DNA from: an uncultured Planctomycetaceae bacterium
GTDB taxonomy: Bacteria; Planctomycetota; Planctomycetia; Planctomycetales; Planctomycetaceae
Direction: 5' to 3'
Assembly: GCA_963813715.1 (NCBI GenBank)
Contig: CAWFAK010000017.1
Location: forward strand, 768,001-832,000
DNA length: 64,000 nucleotides
Shown: piece by piece, positions 7,530-9,125 of the stretch
Position numbering within the stretch: the first letter of the stretch is position 1
Layout of the letters: every line of letters starts with the position of its first letter
Notes under the pieces: model-generated
What the model saw: the letters and a program-made list of their open reading frames with translations, nothing else
Told to the model about the DNA's origin: nothing
The model's database searches: none
Position numbers and translations under genes: made by a program

Positions 7530-7769
7530 TGACAGCGTGGGACGGGACACGTTGTTTTATCGGGAAACGCTCGAAGAATGTTGGCGGCGGAAAGAGGTTG
7601 GCCGGTGGGCGGTGGGTCGGGACACTTTGTTTCACTCGGGAGATGACCCACCAAAGTAGTTGACCCGCTCCCCGCGGGACATTGGGACGGGAGGGCGGGA
7701 CGGGACACGTTGTTTCACCGAGAAAAGCCCTGAGAAATCGCCCTCACCCCGGCCCTTGTATGTTGAAAA

Positions 7770-7995
7770 AAGGTCGAATCTGCGCATTTGATGGGGACAG
7801 CTGTGGGAAAGCTTGCGAAGCGTAGCGAAGCAAGGTTTCCCACAGCGGCCGGCGGTAGATCGTCCGCCCTCAGGTCCAAGAAGACCGTGGGAGAGCTGGA
7901 TCGCCGCCGGTCTCATGAGATCAGCCCGAACAGCCGTCAGAGCCGTCGGGGCGCCAGTCGCCGCTCGAGCTCGCATTCGCAAGGACGGGACATCG
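7770..7995 (+). ncRNA. Predicted bridge RNA of the IS110 element (ends approximate)
   Basis: 5' hairpin 7800-7846; stem-loop 7847-7912 with GCCCT (7866-7870) and TGGGAGAG (7888-7895) matching the target; stem-loop ~7925-7989 with ACAGCCG (7930-7936) and CAAG (7980-7983) matching the donor. Confidence 0.75.
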
Positions 7996-7997
7996 TC

Positions 7998-8950
7998 ATG
8001 GACGTCGCCTTCAAATCGTTCGTCGGTATCGACATCGCCAAACGGACCCTCGACGTGCACGTGCTGCCTGAGCGAACGTCGCTCAAGCAGCAAAACGATT
8101 CCAAGGGCCGACGGCAACTCCGAGAGAAGCTTCCTCCTCCCGGAGAGTGTTTGATCGTCGTCGAAGCCACCGGCGGTTACGAGCGGGCCCTCGTCGCCGA
8201 ACTGATCGACGCGGGCTATCAGGTCGCGGTCGTCAATCCCCGGCAAGCCCGGGACTTCGCCAAAGCCTGCGGAATCGTCGCCAAGACCGATCGCATCGAC
8301 GCGGCCGTGCTGGCACGCTTCGGCCAGGCAGTCGAGCTGCGGACCCAGGCCAAAATCCCGGAAAAACAGCTCGAACTGCAAGACCTCGTCGCCCGGCGCC
8401 GGCAGCTGGTCGAGCTGCGAACCGCCGAAATGAACCGCAAGGAAAACGTCGCCAGCAAGTTCGTTAAAAAGAGCCTTCAGGAGAGCGTCGACGCGCTCAA
8501 CAAGCAGATCCGACGCTTCGAGAAGCGAATCGCCGCGCTGGTCCAATCGGACGACGAGTGGAAACAGAAGGCCGAGATCGTTCAAGCGCGCCGGGGATTG
8601 GACCGGGCACGAGTGCCACCCTGATCGCCGAGGTCCCCGAGTTGGGGCAGCTGAGTCGACGAAAAATCTCCGCACTGGTCGGCCTGGCCCCCTTCAATCG
8701 CGACAGCGGCGAGTTCCGGGGACGCTGCGCGATCCGCGGCGGACGAAGTTCGGTGCGCTGTAGCCTGTACATGGCGACGCTCAGCGCACGACGCTCCAAC
8801 CCAGTCATCAGAGCCTTCTCGGATCGCCTGAAAGCCCTCGGCAAAAAGCCCAAGGTCATCATCACCGCCTGCATGCGCAAGCTGCTGGTGATCCTCAACA
8901 CGATGGTCAAAAACAAAACGCACTGGAACCCTGCAATCTCAACCACTTAA
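7998..8950 (+). CDS. IS110-family DEDD recombinase/transposase (one frameshift ~8586)
   Basis: [22 protein letters not shown] (DEDD), then APGIG and [10 protein letters not shown] in the second frame. Confidence 0.93.
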
Positions 8951-8974
8951 CTCTTGAAAAGAAACACAGCCGCT

Positions 8975-9125
8975 CTCCCAGCAGATTGGGCGAGGGTGAA
9001 ACTGGCGGGACGGGACTCATTTGCAGCGGGGCGGGACAAGTTGACGGGACCGCAATGTGTCCCATGTTAATGTCGCTTGGCAAAAAGACTTAGGAGAAGC
9101 ACCGGACGGGACGGGACACGTGCTA
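8975..9125 (+). repeat. Continuation of the REP/GGGAC array right of the IS
   Basis: Right half of the hairpin at 8975-8996; several GGGAC motifs at 9007-9050; GGGACAC at 9113; one reverse copy at 9057-9063. Confidence 0.8.

Follow-up and report, generated by a model that had tools for sequence, protein, structure and literature searches.

The IS110-group element and its insertion site

The window analysed here is a stretch of 64,000 nucleotides of DNA from an uncultured Planctomycetaceae bacterium (contig CAWFAK010000017.1, positions 768,001 to 832,000). It contains an insertion sequence of the IS110 group that consists of a non-coding left end, a recombinase gene split by a frameshift, and a short right end (Table 1). 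The left junction reads ...CACCCCGGCC-CT (7755-56) followed by TGTATG (from 7757), and the right junction reads ...ACAGCCG (8966-72)-CT (8973-74) followed by CTCCCA (8975-80). Thus, the empty site reads CCCCGGCC-CT-CTCCCA, and joining of the ends gives ACAGCCG-CT-TGTAT as the donor junction. A preliminary description of this DNA had arrived at the same two reconstructions, while its element bounds of 7741 and 8996 were corrected to 7757 and 8974. The empty site was also seen as such: the flanks are joined across exactly 1,218 bases in contigs of two sequencing runs. In 19 of the 19 relatives with a left flank, a CT directly precedes TGTAT (L010, whose contig starts near the left end, was left out). 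A repeat search found no inverted repeats of 20 nt or longer in 6900-9200. The same search picked up repeat units of about 236 bp surrounding the element, which were missed by Tandem Repeats Finder. The adjacent large gene (9145-11962, minus strand) is split into two overlapping frames and looks frameshifted.

Table 1. Features of the element and of its surroundings (window positions)
Feature	Position	Strand	Remarks
Two empty REPs	~7256-7296, ~7490-7532	+	Same type as at the element, each with CT-CTCCCG
Left target	7741-7756	+	5′ part of the interrupted REP (CCCTCACCCCGGCC) and left CT core (7755-7756)
IS110-group element	7757-8974	+	1,218 bp including one CT core (8973-8974); without terminal inverted repeats
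Non-coding left end encoding the bridge RNA	7757-7997	+	241 nt; folds and consensus structure
Right donor TGTAT	7757-7761	+	Within the left end
TATGTT, putative −10 half	7759-7764	+	Promoter across the circle junction
Bridge RNA 5′ stem-loop	7800-7846	+	Single-sequence fold; own copies show compensatory changes (7802/7844, 7808/7838)
Target-binding loop module	7847-7912	+	Outer stem, left guide, inner hairpin (7873-7886), right guide, outer stem
Left target guide UCCGCC-CU	7863-7870	+	Same sense as left target and core
Right target guide UGGGAGAG	7888-7895	+	Exact reverse complement of CT-CTCCCA, 8/8
Donor-binding loop module	7925-7989	+	CCCG/CGGG stem, left guide, inner stem-loop (7940-7972), right guide
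Left donor guide ACAGCCG-U	7930-7937	+	7/7 to the right end (7930-36); U opposite the G pairing with the first core base
Right donor guide AU / UCG / CAAG	7975-7985	+	Matches CT-TG.AT of the left end discontiguously
Recombinase, first part	7998-8583	+	DEDD RuvC-like domain and coiled coil, codons 1-195; frame lost after 8583
Frameshift site	8582-8584	+	One A missing after 8583, compared with the other eight copies and contigs of all four runs
Recombinase, second part	8584-8950	+	Tnp domain with the catalytic serine, in a different frame; stop codon 8948-8950
TTGAAA, putative −35 half	8954-8959	+	17 nt from TATGTT after joining
Left donor ACAGCCG and right CT core	8966-8974	+	
Right target CTCCCA	8975-8999	+	CTCCCA (8975-8980), then REP loop and REP 3′ arm TGGGCGAGGG (8987-8996)

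Recombinase gene

The first part of the recombinase matches DEDD_Tnp_IS110 (PF01548; E value of 7.4e-28, profile positions 1-148 of 155). The second part matches Transposase_20 (PF02371; 5.4e-16), a domain which is out of frame in the window copy and in frame in three of the nine genomic copies. The residues D12, E56, D98 and D101 do not vary in an alignment of 18 sequences, of which no fewer than 90% also share S237 (in NRDSG). The recombinases of IS621 (8wt6) and ISCro4 (PDB 9t56) are full-length matches with E values of about 5e-42 (5.4e-42 and 4.8e-42, respectively). The latter, compared by protein alone, is the best match with a solved structure (residues 7-306), and its acidic residues and serine align. 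The subfamily is very large; 7,999 of the 8,000 scored proteins have E values of 1e-20 or lower, and 604 stretches were confirmed in species-representative genomes. The closest relatives reside in Planctomycetota genomes, which agrees with the planctomycete origin suspected in the preliminary description.

An indel had been noted at about 8586; its real position is that of the A missing after 8583. Frameshifts were found in six of the nine copies, as changes of one or two bases mostly in short homopolymer runs, and the remaining three copies have an intact gene for a 317-aa recombinase with complete catalytic residues. Judging from its sequence, the window copy is non-autonomous. Its ends and guides are intact and its recombinase is split, and it could move only with a recombinase from the three intact copies. 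Is the frameshift, like others, merely a sequencing or assembly artefact, the copy being actually autonomous? This seems unlikely, although it deserves some weight. The missing base falls in a run of A (AA vs AAA after 8583), the breaks in the other copies are largely in runs as well, and the neighbouring minus-strand gene (9145-11962) is also found in two overlapping frames. Since the indels are mostly in homopolymer runs and that gene is frameshifted, some of the breaks may be assembly errors. However, the window copy differs by about 4% substitutions from every other copy, and the contigs compared at 8583 came from other samples, not from the source reads. Given the divergence of about 4%, this copy seems to be old and to have evolved separately, and a real break in it is plausible.

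Fold and guides of the predicted bridge RNA

The left end folds better than shuffled sequences (z = -3.6 and -3.9). The outer stem of the target-binding loop is GGCCGGCGGU(A)GAUC / GAUCGCCGCCGGUC (7847-61 / 7899-7912), and its inner hairpin is GGUC-CAAGAA-GACC (7873-86). The stem of the donor-binding loop, CCCG/CGGG, lies at 7925-28 / 7986-89. The preliminary description had proposed a target stem enclosing an inner GGTC/GACC hairpin, GCCCT and the right guide, as well as a second stem enclosing ACAGCCG (7/7) and CAAG; each of these parts was found again in the respective module.

At the window site, the right target guide matches all eight positions. The two empty neighbouring REPs, CTCTCCCG, match it at seven of eight positions (8/8 counting the U-G wobble), so the counts given previously for the occupied and empty REPs hold. 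The residue after this guide, C7896, is in the handshake position and is complementary to donor position 7 (G8972). The left target guide fits less well; it matches 6/8 at the window site, of which GCCCU (left target plus core) makes up the five contiguous nucleotides of the short match noted earlier, and 4 to 6 of 8 across the nine genomic copies. In the donor loop, the right guide (AU..CAAG, 7975-83) matches 6/7 bases of CT-TGTAT and is followed by the handshake positions G7984 and A7985. By chance, TGGGAGAG is expected 2.16 times and ACAGCCG 11.7 times per 128,000 strand positions, which corresponds to about 0.004 and 0.02, respectively, per 241-nt stretch of one strand before the position in a loop is demanded.

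No match at gathering scores was found for 7000-9500 in Rfam 15; a curated model thus gave no confirmation of membership, a result of little weight since Rfam 15 may lack a bridge-RNA family. The best match, to sX15 (RF02234), lies on the opposite strand of the bridge-RNA region (E value of 0.26; 24.6 bits vs a gathering score of 55). According to the original sX15 paper, sX15 sits on plasmid pXCV183. It was considered whether sX15 is an unrecognised IS110 RNA; the annotated record places it next to an IS3-family transposase, not IS110, and the match was set aside as a chance one.

Nine genomic copies at one common site

All nine genomic copies have the ends TGTAT...ACAGCCG with a CT on both sides, and all nine are inserted at CC-CT-CTCCC[A/G]. 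Most of these insertions interrupt a REP hairpin in its 5′ arm. A comparison of the other copies, proposed previously as a check which could have refuted the bridge-RNA reading, thus found the same ends, the same CT and the same 10-nt site throughout. One copy (C16:392253) lies outside the REP 5′-arm context, yet at the same 10-nt site. A complementary hairpin arm is present at no fewer than seven of the nine occupied sites vs 43 of the 97 empty sites, by a crude pattern and in small numbers; the hairpin was not adopted as a requirement for insertion on such numbers and such a pattern. Since the arm is absent from 54 of the 97 empty motif sites, motif and hairpin are separable. All 97 of these sites with the 10-nt core motif remain unoccupied in the genome. 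The sequence CCCTCTCCC occurs 124 times vs about 161 times expected from base composition; thus, the motif itself is not enriched, and only the REP family is. A perfect 14-nt target implied by the guides was not found in the genome, where three sites have one mismatch and 71 have two. It was also considered whether the left guide instead matches a second place in the REP (TCCGCCCTCA, 12 nt upstream). A full match was found in just one of the nine left flanks, and the match reduces to the REP internal half-repeat GCCCTC.

Are any of these copies still mobile? The element could have been identified correctly and nevertheless be a fossil here, its intact-looking copies having merely not yet decayed. 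Six of the nine copies are frameshifted and no pair is identical; pairwise identity ranges from 93.9% to 99.4%, with the window copy at about 96% to all others. With so many frameshifts and no pair above 99.4%, the family may no longer be active in this genome. The 97 matching sites left unused, and the absence of a circle-junction joint among those listed from contigs, point in the same direction. Against this stand the three copies with the full 317-aa frame and all catalytic residues. Moreover, the guides are identical in eight of the nine copies, and the changes in the stems among them are compensatory, not disruptive. Extinction is the less likely reading, but one to be kept in mind.

Covariation across relatives

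An RNA alignment was made from 23 left ends (three own copies and 20 relatives). The relatives were chosen by a donor-loop motif, and thus the conservation of this motif is partly by construction. The consensus structure has 28 predicted pairs, 17 of which have changes on both sides; such changes affect 10 of the 13 pairs of helix 1 (target loop) and five of the seven pairs of helix 5 (donor loop). Among the consensus cells, 94.8% are paired vs 31-41% when the partners are slid, and none of 500 shuffles reached any of the five structure measures. The 5′ stem-loop, present in single-sequence folds, is absent from the consensus because the alignment is poor there.

Over 19 distinct target loops, the right target guide and the right flank of the same element agree on average at 5.1 of 7 non-core positions vs 2.05 for the flanks of other elements. 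The left target guide matches its own flank at 4.4 positions vs 2.7 for those of others. For each target guide, none of 10,000 permutations reached the cognate sum, a result that is inflated by the ancestry shared among related elements. The donor guide follows the same rule. The right end was located in 22 of the 23 elements searched, and variants of the left donor guide recur at the element's own right end as the last seven bases before CT: ACAGACG in L029, ACAACCG in L039, and ACAGTCG in L042, L043, L044, L051 and L031. This guide-flank covariation in relatives shows, at the level of sequence comparison, that the match between guides and flanks is functional rather than coincidental.

A different reading would have the protein recognise the REP hairpin, with coincidental loop-flank matches and a left-end fold that serves as a 5′ leader regulating expression of the recombinase. 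Some observations suit it. A REP hairpin arm is found at seven or more of the nine copy sites, the left guide fits poorly (4 to 6 of 8), and the AAGGA that ends the donor loop (7981-7985), 12 nt ahead of the start codon, might also serve for ribosome binding. In addition, a preprint on ISPpu10 describes the target stem-loop as an extra determinant of specificity. Nevertheless, guides covary with flanks over the 19 distinct loops at a score that no permutation attained, and the donor guide varies together with the right end, while C16:392253 sits at the same 10-nt sequence outside the REP 5′-arm context and 54 of the 97 empty motif sites lack the hairpin arm. I consider recognition by the protein alone very improbable, and guidance by the RNA is the reading followed below.

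A putative promoter across the circle junction

All 22 elements whose right end was found have a TTGnnn hexamer 12 nt ahead of the left donor; it is TTGACA in 15 of them. The two putative halves are arranged in the same geometry in all 22. No sigma-70-like site was found in the integrated state, and the two putative promoter halves of the window copy lie at opposite ends (Table 1). All sequencing runs, each with no more than 0.35 of the sampled words, were kept as contigs. No joint of a right end to a left end, as expected of a circle, was among the joints listed for the contigs of four runs. Contigs of RNA libraries cover the left end; given possible DNA carry-over, and being blind to starts, ends, strand and level, they do not count as evidence of transcription.

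Discussion

The element at 7757-8974 is very probably an IS110-group insertion sequence, one of nine in its genome, that moves or moved by bridge-RNA-guided recombination. The preliminary description had proposed an IS110 element with a bridge RNA aimed at a REP-like hairpin; protein domains, fold, genomic copies and guide-flank covariation all agree with that proposal. The new programmable recombinase/bridge-RNA pair that it also put forward is a candidate one.

By analogy with IS621, the element would leave as a circle with the joined ends ACAGCCG-CT-TGTAT. The joining would set TTGAAA 17 nt upstream of TATGTT and would thereby create a promoter, which may drive a left-end RNA of about 220 nt, probably together with the recombinase gene that follows. 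The donor loop would read the joined ends via ACAGCCG-U and AU..CAAG, and the target loop would read CC-CT-CTCCC[A/G] with the short left guide UCCGCC-CU and the long right guide UGGGAGAG. The DEDD/serine recombinase would then exchange strands at the CT core. The element prefers a REP hairpin's 5′ arm (CCCTCACCCCGGCC-CT-CTCCCA...TGGGAGAGGG); as the site lies in this arm, the sequence of the right guide is that of the hairpin's own 3′ arm.

IS1111-group elements, which belong to the same family and share its guide logic, have a seekRNA encoded downstream of the recombinase gene and subterminal inverted repeats. In contrast, the RNA of the element described here lies upstream of the gene, and no inverted repeats were found in 6900-9200.

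One of the closest counterparts is IS621 of Escherichia coli, an IS110-group element with a bridge RNA of 177 nt (Durrant et al. 2024, PMC11208160; Hiraizumi et al. 2024, PMC11208158). The two elements share the two recombinase domains over the full length of the protein, the CT core, the right donor TGTAT, an RNA encoded ahead of the gene within the left end, and REP-type targets. They also share a 5′ stem-loop followed by target and donor loops, and promoter halves (putative here) split between the two ends. As described in those two papers, further likenesses are a left donor guide of seven bases plus the first core base and a right one of AU, three nucleotides and CAAG. A bulged A and a G precede each guide, and the handshake bases complement the non-cognate DNA at its position 7, in both elements.

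There are also differences. The right target guide has eight nucleotides here (core plus six) vs four in IS621. The left one, eight nucleotides with a 2-nt linker, has two to four mismatches at its natural sites, whereas a low mismatch tolerance is reported for IS621 (PMC11208160). The left donor is ACAGCCG here, while that of IS621 carries A in position 1 and AT in positions 6-7 (PMC11208158). The preliminary description had given the IS621 donor as ACAGTAT-CT-TGTAT; of this, CT-TGTAT, the A and the AT agree with PMC11208158, and the full donor was not found in the main text of PMC11208160. Finally, the RNA is predicted at about 220 nt vs 177 nt, the host is a planctomycete, and the present element is known from sequence alone.

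ISPpu10 and ISPpu9 of Pseudomonas putida are, like the present element, multi-copy IS110 elements with REP or stem-loop targets, inserted in one conserved repeated intergenic palindrome. For ISPpu10, the stem-loop of the target is reported to add specificity beyond base pairing. That stem-loop is described as a GC-rich 5′ extension of the target, whereas here the CT core lies inside the 5′ arm of the hairpin and the 3′ arm has the sequence of the right guide.

Target specificity in this subfamily seems to reside mostly in the right guide. A further idea is offered tentatively, and it may well prove wrong. Target reading could have shifted to an extended right guide (core plus five to six bases), with about four bases read on the left, and with the right guide copying the REP 3′ arm. 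Because of this copying, the RNA may gain hold of the 5′ arm through competition with the extrusion of a hairpin or cruciform, or by making use of it. Two base changes in the right guide might also have retargeted relatives naturally, from one to the other of two half-repeats that adjoin each other in a single REP type; the site is GCC-CT-CTCCCA for the window element vs GCC-CCT-CACCCC for the Anatilimnocola relative L042. If true, this would provide a natural rule for building guides that are longer and weighted to the right, as well as a case on which structure-assisted targeting could be tested.

The mechanism is already published and this kind of system has been known since 2024; what is new is one more member, and knowledge of the mechanism is unchanged. 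For Planctomycetota, one full-text literature search came up with no paper that connects IS110 with bridge RNA. The element adds a well-documented natural example: its nine copies occupy a site in common and three of them have intact genes, the right guide is 8 nt long, the left guide is tolerant, and the target is a REP hairpin. It is a reasonable candidate for orthologue collections in genome engineering, or for studies of how such elements are confined to harmless repeated sites.

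Ends, gene and genomic copies of the element

The left junction of the element reads ...CACCCCGGCC-CT followed by the element start TGTATGTTG..., and the right junction reads ...AACACAGCCG-CT followed by the flank CTCCCAGCA.... The recombinase of the window copy is split over two reading frames; codons 1-195, in the first frame, carry a DEDD_Tnp_IS110 domain (7.4e-28), and the second frame has a Transposase_20 domain (5.4e-16). The preliminary description had placed an indel at about 8586. Its position needs correction: one A is absent after 8583, and this A is present in the other eight genomic copies (8/8) and in the contigs of all four public sequencing runs compared. 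The window copy is a non-autonomous, older copy.

Features of the element and of its predicted bridge RNA (window numbering)
Feature	Position	Strand	Description
Mobile element	7757-8974	+	1,218 bp, counting one of two CT copies
Non-coding left end			241 nt, 5′ of the recombinase gene
TATGTT	7759-64		2 nt inside the left end
5′ stem-loop	7800-7846		fold of the left end
Target-loop module	7847-7912		outer stem around both target guides, with a small hairpin (7873-86)
Left target guide	7863-70		UCCGCC-CU
Right target guide	7888-95		UGGGAGAG
Donor-loop module	7925-7989		CCCG/CGGG stem around the donor guides, with an inner stem-loop
Left donor guide	7930-37		ACAGCCG-U
Right donor guide	7975-83		AU-UCG-CAAG
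Recombinase gene	7998-8950	+	
TTGAAA	8954-59		15 nt upstream of the core end
Right end			just 24 nt, 3′ of the gene

Nine copies were found in the source genome (7.49 Mb, 18 contigs), and all nine have the proposed TGTAT...ACAGCCG ends with CT on both sides. Any two of them are 93.9-99.4% identical over the element, and the window copy is about 96% identical to each of the others. The 317-aa gene is intact in three copies (C5:1086634, C16:392253, and C8:67969, by contig) and frameshifted in six, including the window copy. On the minus strand of the window at 9145-11962, two long overlapping frames (601 and 761 aa) seem to be a single large regulator gene of the ATPase/TPR type, broken by one frameshift near 10,800-10,950. 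The six broken copies and this apparent frameshift raise the question of indel errors in the assembly.

In eight of the nine copies, the left flank is C(T)CACCCC(C)G[G/A]C(C)(C)-CT, while that of the ninth (C16:392253) is GTCCCGTCCC-CT. The right flank is always CTCCC followed by A (five copies) or G (four copies). Thus, the common site is CC-CT-CTCCC[A/G], and a comparison suggested in the preliminary description places every copy at the same CT. Typically, the site lies in a REP-like hairpin, CCCTCACCCCGGCC-CT-CTCCCA / loop / TGGGAGAGGG. Fuzzy searching gave 76 matches genome-wide, the majority being such hairpins; the exact 10-nt site is unoccupied at 97 places, with the complementary arm nearby in 43 of them.

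The gene-free surroundings (6987-7730 and 9000-9120) consist of repeat units of about 236 bp, each with an GGGACGGGACAC motif, a REP hairpin, and a 63-nt block; the blocks at 7364-7426 and 7606-7668 are 97% alike, and the element occupies the third REP of the array. Elsewhere in the genome (G000), same-orientation copies lie 311 bp apart on contig C5 (1206685-1209487) and 659 bp apart on C16 (500652-503786), and pairs of this kind might serve as substrates when the intervening segment is deleted under guide direction. The most diverged copy (L009, C5:1208234-1209487, ~94% identity) keeps the target-loop stem by a G-C to A-U double change at 7855/7904 (window numbering), no longer has the left-guide U that pairs with the core (7870 T to C), and lacks two bases of the gene at 8185-86. 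A 423-aa open frame adjoins the intact C8 copy (L005, 2884-4155, minus strand).

Public soil, peat, or rhizosphere metagenomes and metatranscriptomes, which share at most about one third of sampled words with the sequence, were available as contigs, a form in which transcript ends and levels are not readable. In two runs, contigs pass from flank to flank and skip exactly 1,218 bases, from 7754 to 8973 (X16) and from 7757 to 8976 (X16 and X18). These contigs fit the reconstructed empty site, and since the flanks are repeats, their source may be empty REP units that are paralogous or related. In another run (X4), a 1,478-nt contig contains a complete element (38 differences), inserted in a different REP of that type.

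Predicted bridge RNA

The layout of the left end agrees with the IS621 bridge RNA as described in PMC11208160 and PMC11208158, and its folding stability exceeds that of shuffles (z = -3.6 and -3.9). The left target guide is in top-strand sense with its last bases on the core, and the right target guide reads as the core and the right flank in reverse complement. In the left donor guide, seven bases are followed by the first core base only, here a U capable of wobble pairing to G; its right counterpart has AU, three unpaired or non-canonical bases, and CAAG. Each outer or inner stem has a bulged A, and a G immediately precedes each guide. At the handshake positions, the two bases 3′ of each right guide, C7896 complements the G at donor position 7 rather than the C at target position 7, and G7984 complements the C at target position 7 rather than the G at donor position 7, the pattern of the IS621 rule described in the same two reports. 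Rfam sX15 gave a weak full-length match on the minus strand (7833-7985, 24.6 bits, E 0.26), which is probably due to chance because Xanthomonas sX15 adjoins an IS3-family transposase.

The family of the intact protein is very large (7,999 of 8,000 scored candidates at E <= 1e-20). Among species-representative genomes, 604 stretches were confirmed, and the 78 loci retained are 45-66% identical, the nearest being in Planctomycetota. The donor-loop motif, carried by 28 of the 78 loci, served as the anchor, so its conservation is no evidence. Five loci with contigs that break off before the left end were excluded, as were three same-genome duplicates, and 20 loci and three own copies were aligned. 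RNAalifold predicted 28 pairs on these 23 rows, and both sides have changed in 17, including 10 of 13 pairs of the target-loop outer stem and five of seven of the donor-loop inner stem. Under the predicted structure 94.8% of cells pair, against 31-41% with partners slid by one to three columns, a measure favoured by deriving the structure from the same alignment; the double-sided changes are the stronger point. None of 500 shuffles reached any of five measures. Among the own copies, two have compensatory pairs at 7802/7844 and 7808/7838.

Joining of the ends would bring TTGAAA and TATGTT together as a putative promoter across the junction with a 17-nt spacer. TTGnnn lies at the same distance in all 22 elements with a right end (TTGACA in 15, TTGAAA in four, others in three). 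No sigma-70-like site was found in the integrated copy when 7600-9100 was scanned, which agrees with the model outlined in PMC11208160 that excision reconstitutes the promoter. Among the joints listed for the contigs of four runs, there was none from right end to left end.

Guides, flanks and targets

Do the guides follow the sites? In 22 elements with 19 distinct target loops, the right guide and its own right flank agree at 4-6 of the seven non-core positions (mean 5.1, against 2.05 for flanks of other elements). The left guide scores 4.4 against its own flanks and 2.7 against others; the left loop of L018 was taken out of register, an error that could reduce the cognate score but not raise it. 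For both guides, the cognate sum was reached by none of 10,000 permutations, a count that overstates independence because some targets are common by ancestry (L012, L020, and L025). For 22 of the 23 elements, all but L047 with its truncated contig, the right end was located; element lengths are 1,165-1,266 bp, apart from one of 1,611 bp. Donor loops ACAGACG, ACAACCG, and ACAGTCG each recur as the heptamer preceding CT at their own right end. Covariation across relatives is thus seen on the donor side as well.

In three two-copy genomes (L019/L021, L022/L023, and L043/L044), the two copies have 7-9 bases in common on the right flank and only 2-4, next to the core, on the left, and the nine own copies show the same pattern. 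At the nine own sites, the right guide matches 8/8, or 7/8 plus a possible U-G, while the left guide matches only 4 to 6 of eight positions. From these patterns, the subfamily may be read as right-guide-weighted, which fits the mention in PMC11208160 of orthologues with a longer right guide than IS621.

By every sequence-level criterion, the element belongs to the bridge-RNA-bearing IS110 group, and its differences from IS621 are of degree only: the right guide is longer, the left guide looser, the predicted RNA longer, the left donor another one, and the host a member of a different phylum. The IS110 family is known to target REPs (Tobes and Pareja 2006, as cited in PMC11208160), including the described cases of ISPpu9 and ISPpu10. 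One full-text search turned up no paper that links IS110 and bridge RNA in planctomycetes; the subfamily may well be among the thousands of orthologues in the supplementary tables of the 2024 papers. Overall, the preliminary observation is confirmed and its interpretation supported, with the RNA, the circle, and the activity as predictions.

The locus L042 of Anatilimnocola sp. NA78 (NZ_CP187419.1:1044513-1047833) has a nearly identical left guide (UCCGCCCCU) and the right guide GCGGGUGAG, versus GUGGGAGAG in the window element. Its insertion point is in the adjacent half-repeat of the REP type that the window element uses (GCC-CCT/CACCCCAACCCT, the slash marking the junction); L042 uses the first half-repeat and the window element the second. 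This is an apparent natural two-base retargeting between half-repeats of one REP type. Outside Planctomycetota, L043/L044 of an uncultured delta proteobacterium MAG (CAWETI010000003.1) lie in a CTCACCCTGACC-CT/CTCCCC repeat, so the REP type and its IS110 guests may be common to several phyla. What is most interesting here is a right-weighted guide that equals the REP 3′ arm, together with the apparent two-base retargeting.
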